Below, in pieces: positions 7,551 to 51,615 of a stretch of 64,000 nt of DNA (within the stretch, counting starts at the first letter, position 1; every line of letters begins with the position of its first letter). The notes beneath the pieces were generated by a model. That model made no database searches, was not told where the DNA came from, and saw nothing but the letters and a program-made list of their open reading frames with translations. The position numbers and the translations under genes are program-made. This DNA comes from Patescibacteria group bacterium (GTDB lineage Bacteria > Patescibacteriota > UBA1384 > XYA2-FULL-43-10 > 1-14-0-10-43-13): the NCBI GenBank assembly GCA_041674765.1, contig JBAYVE010000001.1, positions 262,177 to 326,176 of the forward strand, in the 5' to 3' direction.

Positions 7551-8495
7551 ATGGAGATTTCGCCCGAACAGTCAGAGATTTTGTCACAATATAATCACAA
7601 TTCTCATCCGGCCCGAATAATATTAACAAATATCCAGTCATTGACTCTAGAACCAGAAAGTATAAACAAAGAAAGCAAATATTACTATTGGGATATTATC
7701 AAATGCTTTTATAGTTTCTCGCTATTGATGAATCAGATGGATGGATGGGCTCTCTCTATAATGGCTTTTATTGATAAAGGTTTTTCTAATTCATACTTAC
7801 TAATTCCTACTTTTTTTGATTCTTGCTCGTTTTCTGCCTTTATGTTTCGAGAAAAACTTGGGATGTTATTGATTAATGAATATTTTGATTATAAAGATTA
7901 CAAGACAGAAGAGCTAAAAGGTATAAAAGGAATGGATTTTCTGAATAATGCTTATAGGGGTATGGATTCTAAGGAGAGAAATAGAAAAGGATATCTGGTA
8001 ATTCAGGCCTTTAACAAATCCAAGAAAATGATGAAATTGATTTCGATAAAAAACGACGCACATGATAAATACCGTATCTTCTGTGAAATAACGCCACTTA
8101 AACTAGCATTTCCAAACCCTGGGAGAGTAGCATTTAGTGAACCAAAAAATTTCCCTAAATATTACAAAGCAACAAGAGATTATTATCATGAAGCGTTTCA
8201 TGAGATGCAAATTATTTTCGAAGAACTTACAAGATTAATTAATTACGGAAGAATTAACTTTGACGCTTACGAAGTGATTAAAAAACAACCTCAAGGAATA
8301 ATTATCAATGGCGAAAAAGTACAATATAGTCTTAAATCCCCAAAAAAACTGTTTTTTGCCTATAAAAGTCAAGGTTTCTCTATCGATCGTCCTAAAAATT
8401 TTAATATGAGAGGCATTGAGGAAGCAATATCAAAGTGCATTGATAGATGGAATAAAGAACAGAGCAAATGCAATCGTCCGATAGCAGATCTGTAA
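7551..8495 (+). CDS. Hypothetical protein (314 aa), AT-rich orphan gene adjacent to a tRNA cluster
   Basis: Long ORF with no motif I can assign. It is noticeably more AT-rich and Tyr/Lys/Phe-rich than the flanking genes. Confidence 0.45.
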   Translation: MEISPEQSEILSQYNHNSHPARIILTNIQSLTLEPESINKESKYYYWDIIKCFYSFSLLMNQMDGWALSIMAFIDKGFSNSYLLIPTFFDSCSFSAFMFREKLGMLLINEYFDYKDYKTEELKGIKGMDFLNNAYRGMDSKERNRKGYLVIQAFNKSKKMMKLISIKNDAHDKYRIFCEITPLKLAFPNPGRVAFSEPKNFPKYYKATRDYYHEAFHEMQIIFEELTRLINYGRINFDAYEVIKKQPQGIIINGEKVQYSLKSPKKLFFAYKSQGFSIDRPKNFNMRGIEEAISKCIDRWNKEQSKCNRPIADL

Positions 8496-10170: not shown

Positions 10171-11979
10171 ATGAAACCAAATTACAATCGAACCATCATT
10201 TATATATTAATAATCATCATTGGCTTATTCCTTTTGTCGAACTACCTTTTTCCAAAGGGAGATCAGCCCAAGAGCGTTCCGATATCAGAGATTTCTCAGG
10301 ACGTTGAGAGAGGTGATGTCAGCAAAATTGAGGTTAAAGATAATAATGTAATCGCTACATTGAAAGATGGACAGAAGCTCGAGGCGGTCAAGGAAACCTC
10401 TGTCGGCTTGATGGACTACGGAATTACTCCGGATAAAGTAGAGATTAACGTCAAAGATAGTTCTAGCGCTATGGCCTGGTATTCTATATTACAAATTTTG
10501 ATCCCAATCCTTCTAATCGGCGGTTTCATCTACTTCATGATGCGGTCAGCTCAGGGAGCAAATACCAAAGCGATGAGCTTCGGCAAATCAACGGCCAAGC
10601 TTTTTATGGGTAACAAGAAGGTGGTCTTCGATGATGTAGCCGGATCGGCTGAAGCCAAACAGGAACTTTATGAAGTTGTCGATTTCCTGAAAAACCCAAA
10701 GAAATACCGGGATCTTGGCGCTGAGATTCCTCGCGGTGTCCTTTTGGTCGGCTCGCCTGGTACCGGTAAAACTTTGCTTGCCAGGGCGGTCGCCGGTGAG
10801 GCTGGTGTGCCCTTCTTCTCTATCTCGGCTTCAGAGTTTGTAGAAATGTTTGTCGGTGTCGGTGCCTCTCGGGTTCGAGATTTATTCCAGAAGGCGAAAA
10901 AGAACGCCCCTGCAATCATCTTTATTGATGAACTTGATGCTGTGGGCCGTCAGCGTGGAGCCGGACTCGGCGGTTCTCATGACGAACGTGAGCAGACATT
11001 GAATCAAATATTAGTGGAAATGGATGGCTTTGAGCCGTCAGACAATGTAATTGTCGTTGCTGCGACCAACCGTCCCGATGTGTTGGACCCGGCCCTTTTG
11101 CGTCCAGGTCGTTTCGATCGTCAAGTCTACATTGATCTACCGGATCGGGCTGAGCGAGAGGCTATTTTGAAGGTACATACCAAAAATAAGCCAGTCGAAA
11201 CTGAGGTAAATCTCGAGCGGATCGCCGCTTCAACTCCGGGTTTCTCTGGTGCAGATCTAAGAAATCTGACAAATGAAGCCGCTATCACAGCTGCCAGGAA
11301 TAATAAAAAGACAGTTTCGCAAGAGGATCTGACAGAGTCTATTGAAAAGGTGATGATGGGACCGGAAAAGAAAACGAAAGTCCTATCTGGCAAGGAAAAG
11401 GATATCACTGCTGTTCATGAGGCCGGACACGCTGTTGTCAGTCATTTTTCGCCCAACGCAGATCCTGTCCATAAAATCTCAATCATTTCACGTCGGATGG
11501 CTTTGGGCTATACTTGGAACATGCCGACTGAAGATAGAAAACTACAAACAAAAGCTCATTTCATCGATGAGATTGCAACATTGATGGGCGGGCGAGCGGC
11601 AGAGGAGGAATACTTTGGCATCGGCAATGTGACAACAGGGGCCTCAAATGATATGAAACGAGCTACACAAATCGCCCGGGCCATGGTCACTGATTATGGT
11701 ATGAGCGAACGGTTAGGTCCCCAAATCTATGGACACAAAGAGAGTATGCCGTTTTTGGGCAAGGATTATAACGAGCAGCGAAATTATAGCGAGGAAGTCG
11801 CCAAATTGATTGATGAGGAAGTGGCTAAATTTATCTCTCAGGGCAAAAAGCAAGCAACGGAGATTATCAAGAAACACCGCAAGACTATTCGTCAGATCGC
11901 TGATGATCTGCTAAAGAAAGAAACAATCAACGATCAAGAATTCAAAAAATATTTCGAAGCCGACAGTAAAACAAAATAA
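10171..11979 (+). CDS. ftsH: ATP-dependent zinc metalloprotease FtsH
   Basis: N-terminal TM, Walker [24 protein letters not shown], Walker [13 protein letters not shown] region, and the HEAGHAV zinc-binding motif. Confidence 0.95.
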
Positions 11980-20400: not shown

Positions 20401-20416
20401 TTTTGACCATTTTTTT

Positions 20417-20448
20417 CGGGATATTTGAACGATCGTTTAAATATCCCG
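20417..20448. repeat. 32 bp near-perfect palindrome centred on CGATCG
   Basis: CGGGATATTTGAACGATCGTTTAAATATCCCG. The arms differ only by a G/A that becomes a G-U pair in RNA. It is flanked by a T6 tract on the 5' side and an A5 tract on the 3' side, so it is not a canonical terminator in either orientation. Confidence 0.6.
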
Positions 20449-20510
20449 AAAAATAAAAATGATTGATTAGTTGAAAACAGGGAATTGATAATTGTAAAAT
20501 TATATAAAGA

Positions 20511-24240: not shown

Positions 24241-26133
24241 CTATTTTTCTTCTTCTACCTTTTCGGCTTTTTCTTCCTCTGTCTTCTCGTCTTTTTCTTC
24301 TGTTTTTACCTCTTCTTGTTTAGCTTGGCTTGCCTGCTCGTACATCTTCGCACCGACTTCTTGTAAAGCTTTGCTTAAAGATTCGGTTTGTGTCTTGATC
24401 TCCTCCAGATTGTCTTTGTCTTTCACTTCTTTAAGCGCCTTAATTTTTTCCTCAACGTCGGACTTCAAGTTGCTATCAACTTTATCACCGGCATCACCCA
24501 AGGTTTTTTCAGACGTATAAATCAGAGTATCAGCCATATTTTTGGCTTCGATCAACTCTTTTTTCTGTTTATCTTCGTCGGCGTGCTCTTCGGCTTCCTT
24601 CTTCATTCTCTCAATTTCTGCTTCAGAAAGACCAGACGAGGCAGTAATGGTGATCTTCTGCTCTTTGCTGGTTGCTTTGTCGACGGCCTTTACGTTTACA
24701 ATGCCATTGGCGTCGATATCAAAGGTAACTTCGACTTGAGGCACGCCTCGGGGTGCTGGTGGAATACCGTCGAGCATAAACCGGCCAAGAGTTTTGTTGT
24801 CAGCTGCCATTTCGCGTTCGCCCTGTAAAACGTGGATTTCCACGGAGGTTTGATTGTCGGCTGCTGTTGAGAAAATCTGTGACTTGGAAGTAGGAATTGT
24901 GGTATTTCTTTCAATCAATTTGGTCGAAACGCCTCCAAGTGTCTCGATGCCGAGGGAAAGGGGAGTGACGTCGAGTAAAAGCAAATCTTTGACCTCGCCG
25001 CCGAGAACGCCGCCCTGGATGGCAGCGCCAAGAGCGACAGCCTCATCAGGATTGACAGAGTGATCCGGCTCTTTGCCGAAGAATTTTTTGACGGCTTCTC
25101 GAACTGCCGGCATTCTGGTCATTCCGCCGACTAGAATTACTTCATTGATATCATTTTTTTCAACCTTGGCATCCTTCAAGACCTTTTCGCAAGGTTTCAA
25201 GGTTTTCTCGATCAAAGGCTCTACCATTTTTTCCAGCTGCGCTCGGGAAATGGTCATTTGCAAATGCTTAGGGCCTGATTGATCGGCAGTCACAAATGGC
25301 AAATTAATCTCTGTCTCTTGAGCTGTTGAGAGCTCAATCTTGGCTTTTTCGGCTGCTTCTTTGACGCGTTGGATGGCTGCTTTGTCTGAGTGGAGATCAA
25401 CACCCTGATCCTTTTTAAATTCATCGATAATATAATCCATCACGACCTGATCGAAGTCGTCACCGCCGAGATGAGTATCGCCGTTGGTTGCCTTGACCTC
25501 AAAAACGCCATCGCCAAGTTCCAAAATGGTAATATCAAAGGTACCGCCACCGAGGTCGTAGACAGCAATTTTTTCATTCTTTTTCTTATCAAGACCGTAA
25601 GCGAGTGATGCTGCTGTCGGTTCGTTGATAATTCTTTTGACGTCTAGCCCGGCGATTTTACCGGCATCTTTGGTAGCCTGTCTCTGTGCATCATTGAAAT
25701 AAGCAGGTACAGTAATTACCGCTTCGGTGACTTTTTCGCCGAGATAGGTTTCGGCATCTGCCTTCAATTTTTGCAAAATGAAAGCTGAAATCTCTTGTGC
25801 GCTATAATCCTTGCCGTTCATAATGACTCGAACGGAACCGTCGGAGGCCTTTTTGCTCTCATAAGGCATTTTCTTGAGATCAGCCTGGACTTCAGGATCG
25901 TCAAATTTTCGTCCGATAAATCTCTTGACTGAAAAAATAGTGTTTTCTGAATTCGTTACTGCTTGACGCTTCGATAGTTGTCCGACCAATCTGTCGCCTT
26001 TTTTTGTTTCGGCAACAATTGAAGGAACCGTTCTTCCACCCTCGGAAGAAGTAATAATTTTTGCCTCGCCACCTTCCATCACAGCCACAGCCGAGTTGGT
26101 CGTGCCAAGATCGATACCAACTATTTTACCCAT
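24241..26133 (-). CDS. dnaK: Molecular chaperone DnaK (Hsp70)
   Basis: [26 protein letters not shown] and [13 protein letters not shown], i.e. the full NBD+SBD. The acidic/Lys C-terminal tail ends [11 protein letters not shown]. Confidence 0.97.
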
Positions 26134-26210: not shown

Positions 26211-26241
26211 AAAATGTAAAGTATACTTTACATTTTGTCAA
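26211..26241 (-). promoter_or_regulatory. dnaK promoter (TTGACA-17-TACATT on the minus strand) overlapped by a 26 bp perfect palindrome (candidate operator)
   Basis: The minus-strand TTGACA is the reverse complement of 26236..26241. AAAATGTAAAGTATACTTTACATTTT (26211..26236) is a perfect palindrome occupying the spacer and -10 region, about 80-100 nt upstream of the dnaK ATG. It does not match the CIRCE consensus. Confidence 0.45.
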
Positions 26242-26760
26242 GAGGGATATTATTAATATACAGATTTCTTGCTTGCAAACAAATTTGGCTAGTCATAGAA
26301 TTAGCTTAAAACAAGGAGATCATTTGGATATCTATAAGATCGAATTCTTCAAAAAGAGGACTGTTATTCATCTATTAATTCCGCCTGCAATCAGGAAGAC
26401 AAGTCAATTGCCCGGTTTCGCCAAAACTTTGATTTTACAATTGCCAAGATTGAAATATCATCTTTGTGATAACGAGCAGCATCAATCATTTGCCGACGAA
26501 CTAGAGAATACCGAATTGGCTCATGCCTTTGAGCATACATTGATTGACTTGATAAGAGGGATAAAAAGGTCGAAGTAATTAAGGCGGTTACTTCTTGGGA
26601 TTGGTCTAAATATCCAAGAAATTCTTTTCAGATAGAAGTAGAATATTCAAAGAAAGACAATATGTTAAAATCGTTGATGAAAAGCGGAGAAGATAATTAA
26701 GGGATTAATATTGCAAACAACAAAGAAGCAAGGTCAGTCTTTGATTTTAAGAGATTACAT

Positions 26761-26804
26761 ATATTGTTGAATTAATTTGCGATCGCAAATTAATTCAACA
26801 ATAT
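26761..26804. repeat. 44 bp perfect palindrome (copy 1), centred on GCGATCGC
   Basis: ATATTGTTGAATTAATTTGCGATCGCAAATTAATTCAACAATAT reads identically on both strands. The 40 bp core is identical to the copy at 27332..27371. Confidence 0.9.
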
Positions 26805-26879
26805 GGCATACATTTATTGTTCGCAAAAAAAAGAATTATAAAAATTCTTTGTGCTCTAGGCAAATATTAGAAGGATCCT

Positions 26880-27358
26880 TTATTTATCCCAGCCTCGATC
26901 TTCTTTGCGCATTTCTTCGGTTTCGGTCGGTCTATTATTGTCATCTTCGAGCCTAAAAGTGTTGCCGATCTCAGGAATTGAGGATTCGATGAAAACTATA
27001 TTCGAGACGGCTGTGACTCGATGGATTTGTCCTGGCTGCATAAAATAGCCTTTGTTCAACTCCATCGGAATCTCAATCGTCTGGCCTTTTTCATCAGACA
27101 AAGTTATTTTTGCTTCTCTTCAATCAGGCATAGAGTTTCGATCTTTTCATCATGATATTGCAAGCTTAAGCGTTTGCCGGCATTGACATGCAAAATCTTG
27201 CCGACGGCTGGTGCTTCGGGCGGGGTATAGACAATCTCAAAACCCCAAGGCTTTTCAACTCTTGTTTGAAAGGGAGTTGTGTAATAATGTTTAGGATTAA
27301 AATTGTTGCTCATTGTAATTTCACTTACTGCAATTGTTGAATTAATTTGCGATCGCAA
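26880..27358 (-). pseudogene. Cupin (mannose-6-phosphate-isomerase-like, cupin_2) gene disrupted by a -1 frameshift in an A5 homopolymer
   Basis: The upstream piece (...EKPWGFEIVYTPPEAPAVGKILHVNAGKRLSLQYHDEKIETLCLIEEKQK*) and the downstream piece (LSDEKGQTIEIPMELNKGYFMQPGQIHRVTAVSNIVFIESS...) together form a complete cupin barrel (PWGxE ... LSLQYHxxRxE ... G ... P.G..HR). Adding one A to the run at 27107..27111 restores a single ORF (...QKITLSDEKGQ...). The likely true start is ATG 27313 (MSNNFNPKHYY). Confidence 0.6.
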
Positions 27359-27372
27359 ATTAATTCAACAAT
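27331..27372. repeat. 42 bp perfect palindrome (copy 2)
   Basis: AATTGTTGAATTAATTTGCGATCGCAAATTAATTCAACAATT; lies 20-45 nt upstream of the cupin start on the minus strand. Confidence 0.9.
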
Positions 27373-27465
27373 TTTATGACACAGGAACCTTAACACTTAG
27401 GGCGAATATTCGACTCTGGCGACAGATGAAAGAACAAAGTTGGGTATAGTACTGATTTTTTTTAT

Positions 27466-27936
27466 CTATTTCCCCGCCGATACCTTCACTTTGGCAGGCC
27501 TAAGTACTGAGTCATCAAACTTGTATCCACTGGTTAGCTCTTCGACAATTATATCAATAGGTTCGTCACTTTGGATATGTTCAATTGCCTCATGAAGATG
27601 GGGGTTAAATTGCTCTCCGACTGTAGGAATTTTCGAAAGGCCGGAATTTTCCAAGATTGATTCTAGCTGTTTCTCGATCTGCTTAACACCTATAACCCAA
27701 TTATTGCTTTCCAATTCAGTCGGCACGTGTTTGGCGGCTAGTTGAAAGTTATCAAGAACCGGCAGGATTTCCATTATTAGATCGGTGTTGGCTTTTTTAA
27801 TCAGCTTTTTTCTGTCTTCTTCTACCTGGCGGCGGAAATTTTGAAAATCAGCCTGGGTTCGTTGCCAACCTGCAGTTAATTCTCCGATTTTCTGGTTTAA
27901 TTCTTCGATTTGGGGATTCTGTTTTTCTTTTTTCAT
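27466..27936 (-). CDS. grpE: Nucleotide exchange factor GrpE
   Basis: ADFQNFRRQ (GrpE ADFxNxRKR motif), N-terminal coiled-coil, C-terminal beta-domain; 156 aa. Confidence 0.85.
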   Translation of the reverse strand: MKKEKQNPQIEELNQKIGELTAGWQRTQADFQNFRRQVEEDRKKLIKKANTDLIMEILPVLDNFQLAAKHVPTELESNNWVIGVKQIEKQLESILENSGLSKIPTVGEQFNPHLHEAIEHIQSDEPIDIIVEELTSGYKFDDSVLRPAKVKVSAGK

Positions 27937-28121
27937 AATTATGCTCCGATTTTGTCATCCTCGGAGCAGGCAAAGCCATGGCCCGGGGATCCAATTCCTT
28001 ATTTTCTGGATTCCCGCCTCCGCGGGAATGACAGGTAAATAATATTACTAATGACTATTAACTCTATAACTTTAAACTATCCTTATGCTATCATAATATT
28101 AAATTAACCTATTTAATAAAA

Positions 28122-29537
28122 GTGGGCAAGGTTTTCAAAAACCTGTATTTCCCTTTTAGAATTTTTACAGTTCTTTCTTTTTCGTTTTTGCTTGGTACAC
28201 TCTTCGTTACTTTCATCAATCTCGATTTCAACCGGTCGTGGCCGGTTTTTTTATTTATAATTCCATTCTTTCTAATCTCGGCGTTTATTAATTTTATTTT
28301 AAATAATAAATTGATTGTCCTATGGAGTTTTGCGTTGCTAGCTTTCAGTTTTTCGCTCTTCTATTATTCATATTTCGAAGCCAAGAACAAGGTCAATCTT
28401 CCTTATGACCAGGAGATCGAAATCACCGGCCGGATTGAGAAGCGGCCGGAGGTTGACTGGGAGAAACAGAAATTGGTTGTTCTGGCTCAAATAAATGATC
28501 AAACGATCAATATTTTGGTCAACGCTCCCCATTTTCCCGAGTACCATTTTGGTGAAACCGTGAGAATCAAGGGCAAGATCGTAGAGCCTGTGAATCTCGG
28601 TGATTTTGACTATAAAAGTTATCTAAAACGCTATCTGATTTTCGGCCTTATCAATAATCCTGAAATTTCCTTTGAAAATGAGAACCATGGGATTTATTGG
28701 AAAACTTGCGAATATCTCTATAATATCTCGATTGCCTTCGAGACGACAATAAATAGGTTGATTTCCGAACCTCATGCTTCTCTGGCAGCAGGACTAATTC
28801 TGGGAGTTAAGCGCAATATTCCAGATAATTTGATTGATCAGTTAAAGATTACCGGATTAACGCATATTATCGCACTATCGGGTTTTAATGTAACGATTCT
28901 AATCGCCGTATTTAGCAATTATTTAGTCGGAATTGTCGGCCGGAAGAGGGCGTTTTGGCTCGGGCTTCTTATGGTTATAGGATTTGTTTTAATGACGGGT
29001 GGGGCGCCAAGTGTTGTTCGGGCCTCAATTTTTTCACTGTTAATTCTCTTTGGTCGTACGGTCGGCCGTCAGGCTGATCAGACAAATTTGATGTTGTTGG
29101 CAGCCTTTGTTATGGTAATTTTCAATCCTTTTATCGTTCGATATGATATTGGTTTTCAGCTTTCTTTTATAGCTTTTGCCGGCCTAATTTATTTAACTCC
29201 AGTAATTGAGAAAGGGATTGAAAAGTGGCGAACCAGAGCTTTGCCCCAATTTGTAAAATCAATGCTAGCCGAAACACTAGGGGCTCAGTTCGCTGTTATG
29301 CCGATCTTGTTTATTCAATTTGGTACCATTTCCCTAATTTCTCCATTTGCTAACATTCTAGTTGTTTGGATTGTTCCGTGGGCCATGTTGGCAGCATTTA
29401 TCGCCGGCTTAATTGGCATTATTTATTTCCCATTGGGCAAATTAGTCGCATTATTGCTCTGGCCATTTCTCGAATACATTATTAAAATAGTGGAGTGGCT
29501 AGCGCAAGTGCCGGGAGCGGCGATTAATTTTAAATAA
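28122..29537 (+). CDS. comEC: ComEC/Rec2-family DNA internalisation channel (DUF4131 + competence domain only)
   Basis: N-terminal TMs plus an OB-like DUF4131 region; competence-domain core LAAGLILGVKRNIPDNLIDQLKITGLTHIIALSGFNVTILIAVF. No fused MBL domain. GTG start in the track. Confidence 0.8.
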   Translation: MGKVFKNLYFPFRIFTVLSFSFLLGTLFVTFINLDFNRSWPVFLFIIPFFLISAFINFILNNKLIVLWSFALLAFSFSLFYYSYFEAKNKVNLPYDQEIEITGRIEKRPEVDWEKQKLVVLAQINDQTINILVNAPHFPEYHFGETVRIKGKIVEPVNLGDFDYKSYLKRYLIFGLINNPEISFENENHGIYWKTCEYLYNISIAFETTINRLISEPHASLAAGLILGVKRNIPDNLIDQLKITGLTHIIALSGFNVTILIAVFSNYLVGIVGRKRAFWLGLLMVIGFVLMTGGAPSVVRASIFSLLILFGRTVGRQADQTNLMLLAAFVMVIFNPFIVRYDIGFQLSFIAFAGLIYLTPVIEKGIEKWRTRALPQFVKSMLAETLGAQFAVMPILFIQFGTISLISPFANILVVWIVPWAMLAAFIAGLIGIIYFPLGKLVALLLWPFLEYIIKIVEWLAQVPGAAINFK

Positions 29538-29665: not shown

Positions 29666-30520
29666 ATGTCAAAGCTAACCAAAACCTTACTATTTCTCTT
29701 TCTGCCAGTTGCCGTTTTGATTTGGGTGGAAATTGCAAAGAGTCCGACCGCTGATTCACGAAAAGATCCGGCGGTCTATTTTCTCGATGTCGGTCAGGGG
29801 GATGCGCAATTAATCCAAAATGGTAATTATCAAATTCTAATCGATGGCGGTCCTGATGATAAAATTTTGCCAGAACTCGGTAAATATATGCCGGTAGGGG
29901 ATAGAGAGATCGAAATTGTCATACTTTCTCATCCGCATGCCGATCATTTGGTGGGCTTAAATCAGGTAATCGATCGGTATCAGATAGGGAGAATTTATAC
30001 CAACGGCGTGCTTTATGATTCCAATCAGTACGAGGAATTTATCGATAAAATTAAAGATAAAAAGATTGAGACGGTAATACCCAAGATCGGTGAATCGATT
30101 ATCCCATTTACCAATTCTGCTCTAACATTTCTCTGGCCTGGCGAAAAATATAAGGATCAAATAATTAAAAATCTTAACAATAGTTCGGAGGTAGTTAAAT
30201 TTTGTTATCTTCTAAAATGTGTTCTGTTTACAGGAGATCTGGAAGAAGATGAGCAAGCGAATATGTTTACCTTTTATTCTTCAAGCGCCGGTGATAATTT
30301 CAAGGCAGATATCCTCAAAGTTCCGCATCACGGTTCATCAACTGGCCTTTCGGACGACTTATATAATTTCGTTGCGCCTACAGCGGCGATTATTTCAGCA
30401 GGGATTGATAACAGATATGCCCATCCGCACAAACAAGTAATTGATTATTTAAGTAGCAAAAACATCGAAATCAGGCGAACGGATTTGGAGGGAACTATTG
30501 TAACTGGATTGGGTCAATAG
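29666..30520 (+). CDS. MBL-fold metallo-hydrolase (ComEC C-terminal beta-lactamase-like domain as a separate, membrane-anchored protein)
   Basis: Signal/TM, then DVGQGDAQLI, ILSHPHADHLVGL and LKVPHHGSSTG, which are the motifs of the ComEC/Rec2 lactamase domain. Confidence 0.7.
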   Translation: MSKLTKTLLFLFLPVAVLIWVEIAKSPTADSRKDPAVYFLDVGQGDAQLIQNGNYQILIDGGPDDKILPELGKYMPVGDREIEIVILSHPHADHLVGLNQVIDRYQIGRIYTNGVLYDSNQYEEFIDKIKDKKIETVIPKIGESIIPFTNSALTFLWPGEKYKDQIIKNLNNSSEVVKFCYLLKCVLFTGDLEEDEQANMFTFYSSSAGDNFKADILKVPHHGSSTGLSDDLYNFVAPTAAIISAGIDNRYAHPHKQVIDYLSSKNIEIRRTDLEGTIVTGLGQ

Positions 30521-45103: not shown

Positions 45104-45134
45104 TAAAAAAAGAGGCTTGAAGCCTCTTTTTTTC
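45104..45134. terminator. Bidirectional rho-independent terminator between convergent genes
   Basis: A7-AGAGGC-TTGAA-GCCTCT-T7. Confidence 0.7.
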
Positions 45135-47445: not shown

Positions 47446-48228
47446 ATGAGAGCGATTTGGTCAGGTTCTATCAGCTTTGGGCTGGTCAATATACCGGTTA
47501 AGCTTTATAGCGCCGTAGGCGATGAACGTCTTGATTTTGATATGCTTCACAGGGACGACCTTTCACCAATTCGTTTCGCACGTTTTTGTAGGGTCGAGGA
47601 AAAAGAGGTCCCATATGAAGAGATAGTTAAAGGGTTTGAATACGAGAAAGGAAGATATGTTGTTATTACCGATGAGGATTTTGAACGCGCTAATGTTAGA
47701 GTAACGCATGCAATTGTAATCCTAGATTTCGTTGATCAGAATGAGATAGAACATAAATATTTCGAAAAACCATATTATTTGGAACCGGACAAGGGTGCAG
47801 ACCGCTCTTATGCATTAATGAGGGAGGCGTTAAATCGATCTGGTAAAATTGGGATTGGTAAATTCGTACTAAGAAATCGTGAGCACTTAATTGGATTGCG
47901 TTCCGAAAAAGGCATTTTGGTTTTGGAGCAGCTACGCTTTGCTAGCCAAATCAGAAAAACAGCGGGGCTGAATAAGGCTGATAATATTGAATTAGACGAG
48001 AGAGAGGTCGAGATGGCTCTAGATCTGATTAACCGACTCTCTCGACCTTTCAAAATCGAAGAATACAAAGATACATATACGAATGAGTTGAAGAAGGTGA
48101 TAGCAGAAAGAATTTCCGGAAAAACTCCTTCAGCTGTTGGTACTCCTCCATTGCCGACACCTGTTCCAGATTTGATGGAGATGCTTAGAAAAAGTTTAGA
48201 AGAACAAAAAGGGAAAAGCAGAACTTAG
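47446..48228 (+). CDS. ku: NHEJ DNA end-binding protein Ku
   Basis: MRAIWSGSISFGLVNIPVKLYSAV is the canonical bacterial Ku N-terminus. Confidence 0.85.
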   Translation: MRAIWSGSISFGLVNIPVKLYSAVGDERLDFDMLHRDDLSPIRFARFCRVEEKEVPYEEIVKGFEYEKGRYVVITDEDFERANVRVTHAIVILDFVDQNEIEHKYFEKPYYLEPDKGADRSYALMREALNRSGKIGIGKFVLRNREHLIGLRSEKGILVLEQLRFASQIRKTAGLNKADNIELDEREVEMALDLINRLSRPFKIEEYKDTYTNELKKVIAERISGKTPSAVGTPPLPTPVPDLMEMLRKSLEEQKGKSRT

Positions 48229-48267
48229 ATGCTTAGGACGAGAGGAATGAAATAGAATAAGGAGTCT

Positions 48268-49830
48268 ATGCCTTTCAAAGAATATGAGAAAAAACGAAAG
48301 TTTAGCTATACCCCGGAGCCAAAAGGCAATATAAGACCGAAAAAAGGCCAACTGACTTTTGTGGTACAGAAACACGATGCTTCTCATCTTCATTATGATT
48401 TAAGGCTTGAACTAAATGGAGTCTTAAAGAGCTGGGCCATACCCAAAGGGCCGACTATAAAGCCTGCTGGCAGACGTCTGGCGATGATGGTTGAAGATCA
48501 TCCCTATAATTATAAGGACTTCGAAGGCATAATCCCGGAAGGCAACTACGGTGCTGGCACTGTGATGATCTGGGATAAGGGACAATATCATGCCACATCA
48601 ACCGCTGATTCCACGGAAAGCGAAAATCAACTAAACGAAGGTCTAAAGAAGGGTCATTTGAGCTTTGTTTTGGAGGGCGAAAAGCTCAAAGGTGAATTTG
48701 CGCTGGTTCGAATGAAGAATGCTAGAGAACCGAATGCCTGGCTCCTAATAAAAGCGGATGATTCAGGATCGAGCGAAGAAGATATTTTGAAAAAAAATAA
48801 GTCAGTTCTCTCTGGCAAAACGATCGAGGAAATTGAAGGCCAGTCAGAGGACTTTTGGAATTCTCGATTAGGAGGAATTATTATCTCTGAGGCTCCTAAG
48901 GAAAAAATGCCAGACAGAGTTAGACCCATGCTCACAACATTTGTAGACTCGCCATTCAACGGCAAGGACTGGCATTTTGAGATAAAATGGGATGGCTATC
49001 GTATTATCGCATTTAGGGATCACGATAGTTTTCGGCTACAATCGCGAAATTTCAAATCATTAAATCAAAAATTCAAAGAAATTGTTACTGACTTACAATT
49101 ATTTCCACACCAGATCATCTTGGATGGAGAAGCTGTTGTCTTAAATCAAGAAGGTATGCCTGATTTTCAACTTCTTCAGGACTATGATAAAAGCCATAAC
49201 GGGCGCTTAGTTTTTTATGTTTTCGATCTTCTTTATCTGGAGGGACGTACCCTAGAAAGATGCCCATTGTCTATGAGGAGGGAAGTGCTGGAAAAGATTA
49301 TGCCCAAATGTCCATATATTAAAATAAGCGAGGCAATCATCGAGAAGGGCGAAGGTCTTTTCGATGCAATCAAACAAAAGGGACTAGAGGGAATGATCGC
49401 TAAAAAACTAGAAAGTCCATACCGACAAGGTGTTAGATCCGGAGATTGGTTAAAAATTAAAACTCATTTAGAGCAGGAGGTGGTGATCGGCGGGTACTCT
49501 GCGCCCGCCGGAAGCCGGATGTACTTAGGTTCATTAATTGTGGGAGTTTACGATCAAAAAAAACTAATTTATGTCGGCAGTGTTGGAACGGGGTTCGGCA
49601 ATATGGTTTTGAAGGAGTTGAAGAAAATGCTGGACAAAGAGATTATAAAGAGTTCCCCTTTCGCAAACATTAGTCATATAAAAGGGGCTACTTGGGTAAA
49701 CCCAAAGTATGTAGCAGAGATTAAATTTCAGGAGTGGACCAGAGATAATCTTCTTCGCCAACCGGTCTTCCTGGGTCTCAGGGAAGATAAGGATCCAGGA
49801 GAAGTAACCAAAGAAATTCCTAGTAAATAA
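48268..49830 (+). CDS. ligD: DNA ligase D (3'-phosphoesterase domain + ATP-dependent ligase domain)
   Basis: PE domain FVVQKHDASHLHYDLRLELNGVLKSWAIPKGPT; ligase adenylation motif I FEIKWDGYRII (KxDG) and downstream ligase motifs. Confidence 0.8.
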   Translation: MPFKEYEKKRKFSYTPEPKGNIRPKKGQLTFVVQKHDASHLHYDLRLELNGVLKSWAIPKGPTIKPAGRRLAMMVEDHPYNYKDFEGIIPEGNYGAGTVMIWDKGQYHATSTADSTESENQLNEGLKKGHLSFVLEGEKLKGEFALVRMKNAREPNAWLLIKADDSGSSEEDILKKNKSVLSGKTIEEIEGQSEDFWNSRLGGIIISEAPKEKMPDRVRPMLTTFVDSPFNGKDWHFEIKWDGYRIIAFRDHDSFRLQSRNFKSLNQKFKEIVTDLQLFPHQIILDGEAVVLNQEGMPDFQLLQDYDKSHNGRLVFYVFDLLYLEGRTLERCPLSMRREVLEKIMPKCPYIKISEAIIEKGEGLFDAIKQKGLEGMIAKKLESPYRQGVRSGDWLKIKTHLEQEVVIGGYSAPAGSRMYLGSLIVGVYDQKKLIYVGSVGTGFGNMVLKELKKMLDKEIIKSSPFANISHIKGATWVNPKYVAEIKFQEWTRDNLLRQPVFLGLREDKDPGEVTKEIPSK

Positions 49831-49897
49831 AGGTCAATATAAATAATAGTTATAAGGTGTTAAGAAATAAACATCCAAGCTAAATAGGATATCATAA

Positions 49898-50833
49898 ATG
49901 TCCAATAACAGTTTAATAGAACAACAAGGGAATCAGGAATTAGAAATTGAGGGCAAGATTTTAAAATTGACTAATCTTGGTAAGGTTTACTGGCCGGAGG
50001 AAGGTTTTACCAAGGGAGAACTTTTAAATTACTACTTACATGCTTCAGAGTTTATCCTGCCTTATCTTAGAGATCGACCCGAATCTCTGCATCGTTATCC
50101 TAATGGGATTAAGGGCAAAAATTTTTATCAAAAAAATGTCGACCACCAGTTTCCGGATTGGATAAAGACCGCCGATATTTATTCTGAGGGTGGAGACAAA
50201 ATCATAACCTATATGATCATCAATGATCTTCCCTCTCTCCTTTATGCTGTCAATCTGGGTTGTATCGATTTGAATCCTTGGAGCTCACGGCTTGGAACTT
50301 TGGATAATCCCGATTATCTTTTGGTTGATCTAGACCCTGAAACAATTCCTTTTGATTATGTGATCAGTACGGCTTTAGCGGTTCAAAAGATTTTGGATGA
50401 TTTGAAAATTGTTAGCTATCCGAAAACCTCGGGAGCTACCGGTATACATATTTATATCCCTATGCAAGCGAAATATTCGTATGAACAAGTAAGACAGTTC
50501 GCAGAGTTGCTTGTTGGCCTAGTCCATCAGGAAGTACCAGAATACACCAGCTTAGTTAGAACTGTGAAAGAGCGGCGGGGCAAAGTTTATCTTGATTGGT
50601 TACAAAACTCCTGGGGACAAACTTTAGCGGCTCCATACTGTGTTCGACCGAAGCAAGGTGCCACGGTCTCAACGCCGCTCGAGTGGAATGAAGTTCAAAA
50701 AGGATTGAGTCCTGGTGATTTTACAATCAAGAATGCAATGAGTAGATTCAAAAATAAGGGTGATATTTTTATGGGAGTCCTTAACTCAGGGGTTATAATA
50801 GAGGAAGTTCTATCTAAATTAAAACATGTCTAA
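49898..50833 (+). CDS. LigD polymerase/primase domain protein (NHEJ PolDom, archaeo-eukaryotic primase fold)
   Basis: KVYWPEEGFTKGELLNYY, LLVDLDP and YPKTSGATGIHIYIP match the LigD-Pol pattern. Confidence 0.75.
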   Translation: MSNNSLIEQQGNQELEIEGKILKLTNLGKVYWPEEGFTKGELLNYYLHASEFILPYLRDRPESLHRYPNGIKGKNFYQKNVDHQFPDWIKTADIYSEGGDKIITYMIINDLPSLLYAVNLGCIDLNPWSSRLGTLDNPDYLLVDLDPETIPFDYVISTALAVQKILDDLKIVSYPKTSGATGIHIYIPMQAKYSYEQVRQFAELLVGLVHQEVPEYTSLVRTVKERRGKVYLDWLQNSWGQTLAAPYCVRPKQGATVSTPLEWNEVQKGLSPGDFTIKNAMSRFKNKGDIFMGVLNSGVIIEEVLSKLKHV

Positions 50834-51480: not shown

Positions 51481-51535
51481 ATAGTGATTATAGACATAAA
51501 AAATAACAATTTCTTTGGCATAAAATAAAATATAG

Positions 51536-51615
<80 letters not shown>

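Follow-up and report, generated by a model that had tools for sequence, protein, structure and literature searches.

The grpE-dnaK locus in the window (the whole 64-kb stretch of DNA analysed here) raises the question of what two copies of one long palindrome are doing on either side of a broken cupin gene, and how they came to be there. An earlier note on this DNA saw in them either the ends of an inserted cassette or twin heat-shock operators. The pair was therefore compared with the same locus in relatives, with similar palindromes elsewhere and with the known classes of palindromic element.

The two palindromes, here W1 and W2 (Table 1), share the 40-mer ATTGTTGAATTAATTTGCGATCGCAAATTAATTCAACAAT with identity at 40 of 40 positions, and no third copy occurs in the 64-kb window at up to three mismatches. 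These exact and three-mismatch searches bear out the original description of perfect palindromes of 44 and 42 bp with an identical core, 527 bp apart. The claim that they lie far beyond chance also holds. Matches to the 40-mer were found in none of 100 dinucleotide-preserving shuffles of the window; the shuffled windows each held 0-5 palindromes with arms of at least 10, none near an arm of 20. Furthermore, 821 kb of related DNA from 80 more distant Microgenomates species contained 11 perfect palindromes with arms of at least 10, the longest being 34 bp. No perfect palindrome of that arm length in those 821 kb was centred on CGATCG, and the two CGATCG-centred examples among 16 near-palindromes were both short and imperfect. 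Within the window CGATCG is about two-fold over-represented (23 occurrences against 10.8 ± 3.2 expected), while the longer centre of W1 and W2, GCGATCGC, was observed four times in 64 kb against 0.66 expected, two of the four being inside W1 and W2 themselves.

Each strand of W1 and W2 is predicted to fold into a 20-bp hairpin, with a calculated energy of -26.4 kcal/mol for the W1 RNA hairpin (z -5.4) and -17.6 kcal/mol for the W2 DNA hairpin (z -7.9). W1 lies 75 nt beyond the cupin stop codon, just past an AT-rich terminator-like hairpin. W2 follows the grpE stop by 92 nt and precedes the cupin ATG by 18 nt, and a promoter scan found a -35-like TCAACA in its outer arm, separated by 17 nt from a TACAAT located where the cupin begins. 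Alignment of the flanks of W1 with those of W2 was no better than that of shuffled controls.

Read along the minus strand, the locus runs grpE, W2, cupin, AT-rich hairpin, W1, an 84-aa gene on the plus strand, the dnaK promoter and dnaK. The best matches of the window proteins are to Gottesmanbacteria, Roizmanbacteria and other Microgenomates. In this assembly, the cupin gene is split by a 1-nt frameshift near 27107-27116: tblastn with the intact homologues P0004 and P0001 placed residues 1-69 in frame -2 (27313..27107) and residues 67-144 in frame -1 (27116..26883). Repair of one base restores a 144-aa protein that is 78% identical over its full length to intact Patescibacteria homologues, so that the presence of a frameshifted cupin gene between the palindromes is confirmed. 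The further statement, that only a cupin gene lies between the copies and that it breaks the grpE-dnaK arrangement, needs one addition. It is the only gene between the palindromes, but it is not the only content of the spacer, because the 84-aa gene lies there too, outside the palindrome pair. Trial frameshift repair of this second gene gave no longer Pfam match. It is oppositely oriented, sits between W1 and the dnaK promoter and has no counterpart at that position in the related locus L002; it may be a truncated remnant.

Table 1. Features of the grpE-dnaK locus and palindromes of the CGATCG-centred family. Coordinates are those of the window unless another locus is named.
Feature	Location	Strand	Description
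dnaK	24241..26133	-	630-aa ORF; HSP70 call in L001
26-bp perfect palindrome AAAATGTAAAGTATACTTTACATTTT	26211..26236	.	Over dnaK promoter; not of the W1/W2 repeat family
84-aa gene	26324..26578	+	Partial Cyanophycin_syn N-terminal-like domain (PF18921, E 5e-9, profile positions 13-66 of 115)
W1	26761..26804	.	44-bp perfect palindrome; 40-bp core 26763-26802; centre GCGATCGC
AT-rich hairpin with U8 run	26825..26850	-	Terminator-like, 3' of cupin; from RNA fold of 26740-26890, minus strand
Cupin (MannoseP_isomer C-terminal-like), frameshifted	26880..27314	-	Two ORFs; repaired protein matches PF01050
W2	27332..27373	.	42-bp perfect palindrome; 40-bp core 27333-27372, the same as the W1 core
grpE	27466..27936	-	PF01025, E 1e-44; NCBI protein MFA7253211
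W3	20412-20453	.	42 bp, one mismatched pair, CGATCG centre; arms unlike W1/W2
L007 palindrome	L007		50 bp; upstream of rplJ, beside a terminator-like hairpin
L008 palindrome	L008		34 bp; 95 nt after PfkB-like sugar kinase gene, past a terminator
L009 palindromes	L009, 100-137 and 745-772		Two imperfect copies, 640 bp apart, around 211-aa PaaX_M/Cas2-like gene (148-783)
L010 palindrome	L010		44 bp; between VirD4-like ATPase gene and valS
L100 copies of TTCGGCCCTATTGCACGATCGTGCAATAGGGCCGAA	L100, 5397-5432, ~8074-8109 and 11633-11680		36-48-bp palindromes, CGATCG centre

W1 and W2 have counterparts in other genomes. Their 22-bp centre, TTAATTTGCGATCGCAAATTAA, was found in six JGI metagenome contigs representing four distinct loci (L007 to L010), always within a longer palindrome whose outer arms differ from those of W1 and W2. 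The two L009 copies resemble W1 beyond this centre (TGTTGAAcTAATTTGCGATCGCAAATTAATTC). The gene between them encodes a winged helix-turn-helix (wHTH) and a PaaX_M/Cas2-like domain and is annotated by NCBI as Cas2 (MFA7254213/4). These accessions are about 1,000 away from that of the window GrpE (MFA7253211), and the window contig appears to come first in an NCBI Patescibacteria MAG with locus tags WC107_, so that L009 is either a later contig of a large MAG or belongs to a co-submitted one. The upstream copy is 20 nt before this gene and contains a TTGCGA 17 nt from a perfect TATAAT, while the downstream copy codes for the last 13 residues of the protein. Other members came to light independently of the centre search. 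One is W3 in the window, 12 nt beyond the stop of an EamA gene and between convergent genes; the third CGATCG-centred palindrome mentioned in the earlier note is thus real, and is best delimited as in Table 1. Besides its 44-bp palindrome, L010 has two more that are perfect (28 and 34 bp) and no further than 320 bp from it, all three being in a divergent promoter region. L100, from an organism whose GrpE is 75% identical to that of the window, carries three copies within 6.3 kb (three per 12.5 kb), and a tail of about 30 bp behind each copy is common to all three. All six of these additional palindromes are centred on CGATCG. That the centre seems better conserved than the arms is in part an effect of having searched with the centre.

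Taken together, the family comprises palindromes of 28-50 bp that are perfect or nearly so and have CGATCG as their centre throughout, with arms that are common within a genome and different between genomes. AATTTG/CAAATT half-sites recur with the centre, at spacings that differ by 0-2 nt per side among members. The copies have sharp boundaries and unrelated flanks, and they are intergenic, locally clustered and missing at equivalent positions in relatives. Approximately 10 of 13 lie downstream of a gene 3' end in tandem or convergent settings. Several adjoin ordinary terminator-like hairpins (L007, L008, L100 copies 1 and 3, and W1), which argues that the palindromic element is not itself the terminator. 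The density is low, at two copies and one related palindrome (W3) in the 64-kb window. The earlier note had proposed that many copies scattered genome-wide beside unrelated genes would point to a generic REP element. Across genomes the neighbours are indeed unrelated (rplJ, valS, a sugar kinase gene and a Cas2-like gene), but within the window the 40-mer is confined to the W1/W2 locus.

The proposal that the palindromes are the ends of a cassette that brought in the cupin is not borne out by the orthologous loci. The P0002 contig (L003) has the order ComEC (minus strand), grpE, cupin, Vut_1, F420 ligase and dnaK, with a single nucleotide between the grpE stop and the cupin ATG and no palindrome. 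L002, likewise free of palindromes, has its cupin stop about 20 nt from the dnaK promoter. Compared with the repaired window protein, the two cupins show 76-77% identity. In two of the three close relatives with data, the gene occurs at the grpE/dnaK locus without a palindrome. Since two relatives hold it there in this form, the cupin is, judged from these sequences, old at the locus and was in place before the lineages of the window, L002 and the P0002 contig split. In L104, grpE is followed after 518 nt by dnaK, with neither cupin nor element, and L100 and L103 have other genes after grpE. Among the 80 more distant GTDB species, the cupin was never found within 6 kb of grpE, dnaK or dnaJ. 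The comparison of orthologous loci that had been suggested therefore gave a divided result: spacer content does vary between relatives, but the cupin is present at the locus in L002 and L003 without palindromes. The grpE-dnaK spacer is indeed variable across this clade, and the palindromes sit in extra DNA found only in the window lineage when it is set against the P0002 contig and L002. A strain-level empty site that could be aligned is absent, because the nearest relatives have a GrpE 76% and a cupin 78% identical to those of the window. Exact searches with DnaK and with the 84-aa protein turned up nothing more. The spacer of L104 (10517-11034) also contains a tRNA-like sequence whose halves are apparently parted by inserted DNA.

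With the cupin adjoining grpE/dnaK in two palindrome-free relatives, and with no recombinase or transposase domain, including Y1_Tnp and integrase, found among the genes of the 64-kb window, the proposal of cassette ends is not upheld. A wider form of the same idea is that the palindromes are recombination sites bounding a one-gene unit, with a core of the tyrosine-recombinase type and excision or inversion between the copies. Several observations fit this. Pairs bracket one gene both in the window and in L009, which may or may not belong to one MAG; read from the sequence, GAATTAATTTG-CGATCG-CAAATTAATTC is arranged 11-6-11 in the manner of dif- or lox-type sites; L100 copy 1 coincides with one junction of a ComEC-RuvC block whose orientation is opposite to that in the window; and the spacer differs in content between relatives. 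However, in addition to the native cupin and the missing recombinase, the remaining copies are single or several genes apart, palindromy extending to 44-50 bp with non-conserved outer arms is needless for a recombinase core, and a symmetric crossover region would give no directionality. Recombination sites keep some weight because of the two bracketed genes and the 11-6-11 layout, and are on balance quite unlikely. The resemblance to integron attC sites and dif/pdif modules extends to a single gene between two similar palindromes and to inverted arms around a 6-bp centre. Here, in contrast, there is no integrase or Xer gene nearby, there are no extrahelical bases, and relatives have the cupin as a native gene of the locus. 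Identity with attC was rejected: the order GTTGAAT...ATTCAAC is opposite to that of the attC R''/R' boxes (RYYYAAC...GTTRRRY), pairing is perfect and the window has no integrase.

The heat-shock proposal fared no better. Both W1 and W2 are found 3' of grpE, at a distance of 500-1100 bp upstream of the dnaK promoter, which the promoter scan placed at a -35 TTGACA and a -10 TACATT separated by 17 nt. Overlapping these hexamers is a different palindrome, AAAATGTAAAGTATACTTTACATTTT, which occurs once in the window and is identical at 26 of 26 positions upstream of dnaK in the window, in L002 (561-586) and in L104 (10866-10891). The GrpE and DnaK proteins of these three organisms are only 71-87% identical, and the surrounding spacer has diverged. 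AAAATGTAAAGTATACTTTACATTTT is therefore the likelier heat-shock operator, and a candidate for that role in this Patescibacteria clade. It is unlike CIRCE, and we know of no regulator for it. With dnaK equipped with its own conserved 26-bp promoter palindrome, and the 22-bp centre adjoining unrelated genes elsewhere, the reading of W1 and W2 as twin heat-shock operators is unlikely and not supported. They should be annotated neither as such nor as cassette ends, and AAAATGTAAAGTATACTTTACATTTT is the better starting point for heat-shock control.

More generally, the palindromes might be operators of a dimeric DNA-binding protein, be it a heat-shock regulator or, like the one encoded in L009, a PaaX/Cas2-like protein with a wHTH. 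The recurring CGATCG centre and AATTTG/CAAATT half-sites would suit such a protein, and the upstream L009 copy, with its TTGCGA-17 nt-TATAAT, has the layout of an autoregulated repressor. It is because this copy overlaps a plausible wHTH-gene promoter that operators retain some weight. Most copies, however, are 3' of genes or past terminators and not at promoters, the neighbouring genes are unrelated, half-site spacing varies, orthologous loci in relatives lack the sites, dnaK has its separate promoter palindrome and the window encodes no homologue of the L009 protein. We give this explanation a slim chance. As for CIRCE, the operator of HrcA, it shares with W1 and W2 a palindrome in a grpE-dnaK locus; identity was rejected, since they are unlike TTAGCACTC-N9-GAGTGCTAA, lie outside the grpE and dnaK promoters and belong to a family found at non-chaperone genes elsewhere.

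The stable predicted folds, together with the bias towards gene 3' ends, raise the prospect of a role in RNA. As long perfect hairpins in 3' UTRs or intercistronic stretches, the palindromes might stabilise 3' ends, be cut by RNase III or, in the manner of terminators, insulate grpE, cupin and dnaK from one another. The same bias to positions downstream of gene 3' ends is a property of E. coli REP elements. Against this, no U-tract or T-run follows W1 or W2 on either strand and the terminator scan flagged neither, so that an intrinsic terminator was rejected; the canonical terminators of the window, for instance that at 45105-45133, differ from them in look. Moreover, transcription of several family copies may be slight, since they lie past a canonical terminator, and the three in L010 are in a divergent promoter region. 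No Rfam family was matched: W1 and W2 stayed below gathering scores, with generic miRNA-hairpin matches alone, at 18-26 bits against thresholds of 56-249. A protein database searched for ORFs reading through the palindrome (peptide IVELICDRKLIQQ) gave no candidates. An RNA-level hairpin is thus unlikely as the explanation of the palindromes, and could be a secondary use that is compatible with a repeat element.

That CGATCG is common to all the long palindromes while the arms are locus-specific might also suggest a by-product of repair or methylation at CGATCG, in which template-switch 'quasipalindrome correction' builds outward using local sequence. The two-fold excess of CGATCG in the window agrees with this, as does the presence of Ku and LigD among its genes. 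Such a process would nevertheless leave unexplained both the identical 36-48-bp copies at separate sites in one genome and the identical 22-bp centre at unrelated loci of different organisms, and we consider it very improbable.

De Bruijn graph assemblers have difficulty with palindromes that exceed the k-mer, and Logan contigs do break at them, which could arouse suspicion of an assembly artefact. The strain of the window is present in Logan run SRR6484325 (L019; one mismatch in 4830 bp), where its contigs end at window positions 26238 and ~28006 and the span with the palindromes, 26239-28005, was not recovered. Logan contig L102, from the L100 organism, starts and ends inside two of the L100 palindromes, as expected for a palindrome exceeding the assembler k-mer, which itself argues that the palindromes are real. 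W1 and W2 lie, however, within a 365-kb MEGAHIT contig of an ENA metagenome assembly, which has been submitted to NCBI and JGI as well, and family members turn up in JGI, ENA and Logan assemblies made independently. An artefact is almost certainly not the answer. The breakage has a practical side, since perfect palindromes longer than the k-mer interrupt short-read assemblies and thereby affect the completeness of genome recovery.

The account that we favour, at about even confidence, is that W1 and W2 are lineage-restricted, low-copy, CGATCG-centred palindromic intergenic repeats, REP- or MITE-like, which landed twice in a variable spacer. It is preferred to a device specific to this locus because the copies are identical and sharp-ended, with unrelated flanks and genome-specific arms, and because they are intergenic, mostly 3' of genes and by terminators, locally clustered and patchy among lineages, with orthologous sites that lack the element. 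On this account the pair would be two copies of a small non-coding repeat from a family confined to a few Patescibacteria lineages and spreading as REP or MITE elements do. A trans-acting enzyme encoded elsewhere would recognise a hairpin or cruciform tipped by CGATCG, and copies would come to rest at sites that can bear an insertion, in this case a variable spacer with a decaying cupin gene. The centre shared across families may mean that the factor responsible for copying or upkeep reads the hairpin tip, or else that methylation or repair is directed at CGATCG. The effect of the element at the grpE-dnaK locus is probably neutral or minor; judging from its fold and hexamers, W2 would form a stable hairpin after grpE and might possibly provide a weak promoter for the cupin remnant.

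Some findings weigh against a repeat element. The known copies of the 40-mer in the 64-kb window number two, both at one locus; no target-site duplication is visible and no shared direct repeat flanks the copies; and no mobilising enzyme was identified among the window genes. Random landing, furthermore, sits uneasily with pairs that bracket a single gene in both the window and L009, loci that possibly belong to one MAG.

REP/BIME sequences of Proteobacteria (REPINs, with their RAYT/TnpA-REP proteins) are a close parallel. Like the present family, they are short, palindromic, non-coding extragenic repeats with stable hairpins, are genome-specific with several families possible per genome, are biased to the 3' side of genes and to operon spacers, and have most copies without an adjacent transposase. 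W1 and W2 (40-44 bp, intergenic, with stable predicted hairpins) also fit the description of a REP as a palindromic extragenic hairpin of 20-40 nt. Unlike REPs, these are perfect palindromes without a built-in loop and with a CGATCG centre common to different families, the GTAG-type 5' tetranucleotide is missing from the flanks of W1, W2, L100 and L007 to L010, the density is low (2-3 per 64 kb) and the window genes include no RAYT gene. MITEs such as Correia/CREE and Nezha are similarly small and non-autonomous, with inverted-repeat symmetry, sharp boundaries and sometimes promoter-like hexamers, but in W1 and W2 the arms adjoin with nothing between them, and target-site duplication is absent. 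A MITE with terminal inverted repeats was rejected, since here the centre is conserved and the outer ends vary, the reverse of terminal inverted repeats, and there is no direct repeat on either side of the copies.

At their centre W1 and W2 have precisely GCGATCGC, the HIP1 sequence of cyanobacteria. Two papers give CGATCG and GATC as targets of orphan methyltransferases in cyanobacteria (PMC4390886, PMC5861425). HIP1, however, is an 8-mer that occurs about once per gene and also inside genes, whereas the present element is a 28-50-bp intergenic palindrome in a non-cyanobacterium. Identity with HIP1 was rejected, as GCGATCGC occurs four times in 64 kb and HIP1 at about one per kb or more.

Searches further afield were negative. 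The exact 22-bp centre had no match in 185,579 GTDB species representatives, so that the species of the window and its element are not represented there. An 18-mer of the centre found no match in viral contigs, nor did the 44-mer and the whole 741-bp segment in phages and plasmids. A literature search returned cyanobacterial HIP1 work only, with no such palindromes described for Patescibacteria, and REPs in Patescibacteria are not described in the searchable literature. Repeats of the REP or MITE kind have barely been described in these reduced genomes, and a family with a shared CGATCG centre and genome-specific arms would point to a hairpin-recognising enzyme or a methylation-linked process.

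A bolder proposal is that CGATCG-tipped perfect palindromes form a previously undescribed class of hairpin element in Patescibacteria, mobilised by a dedicated protein that recognises the tip. By analogy with REP-flanked RAYT genes, the L009 pair with its wHTH-Cas2-like (PaaX_M) gene might then be the autonomous form, and W1 and W2 non-autonomous copies. Searches of the window, of about 1.1 Mb of other loci and of viral contigs yielded no homologue of the L009 protein. Each copy being its own reverse complement, a pair could drive both deletion and inversion; if true, this would help to explain the variable grpE-dnaK spacer. We see a small chance that this proposal is right.

Other features of the window were noted in passing. 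Upstream of grpE, at 27950-28045 (core 28008-28035), is a G+C-rich repeat, GGATTCCCGCCTCCGCGGGAATGACAGG, at which a same-strain Logan contig ends. Similar copies are present in six other Patescibacteria loci (L022, L023, L027, L056, L073 and L089), which suggests another repeat family with a wider distribution. ComEC is divided between two ORFs (28122-29537 and 29666-30520), one with DUF4131 and Competence and the other with Lactamase_B, as it is in all relatives examined. Ku and LigD, the latter as separate ligase and primase-polymerase ORFs, occupy 47446-50833 and make up a non-homologous end-joining set in a small Patescibacteria genome. Finally, the 7-nt unit ACTTAGA is repeated in tandem about 12 times in the intergenic region at 51530-51615.
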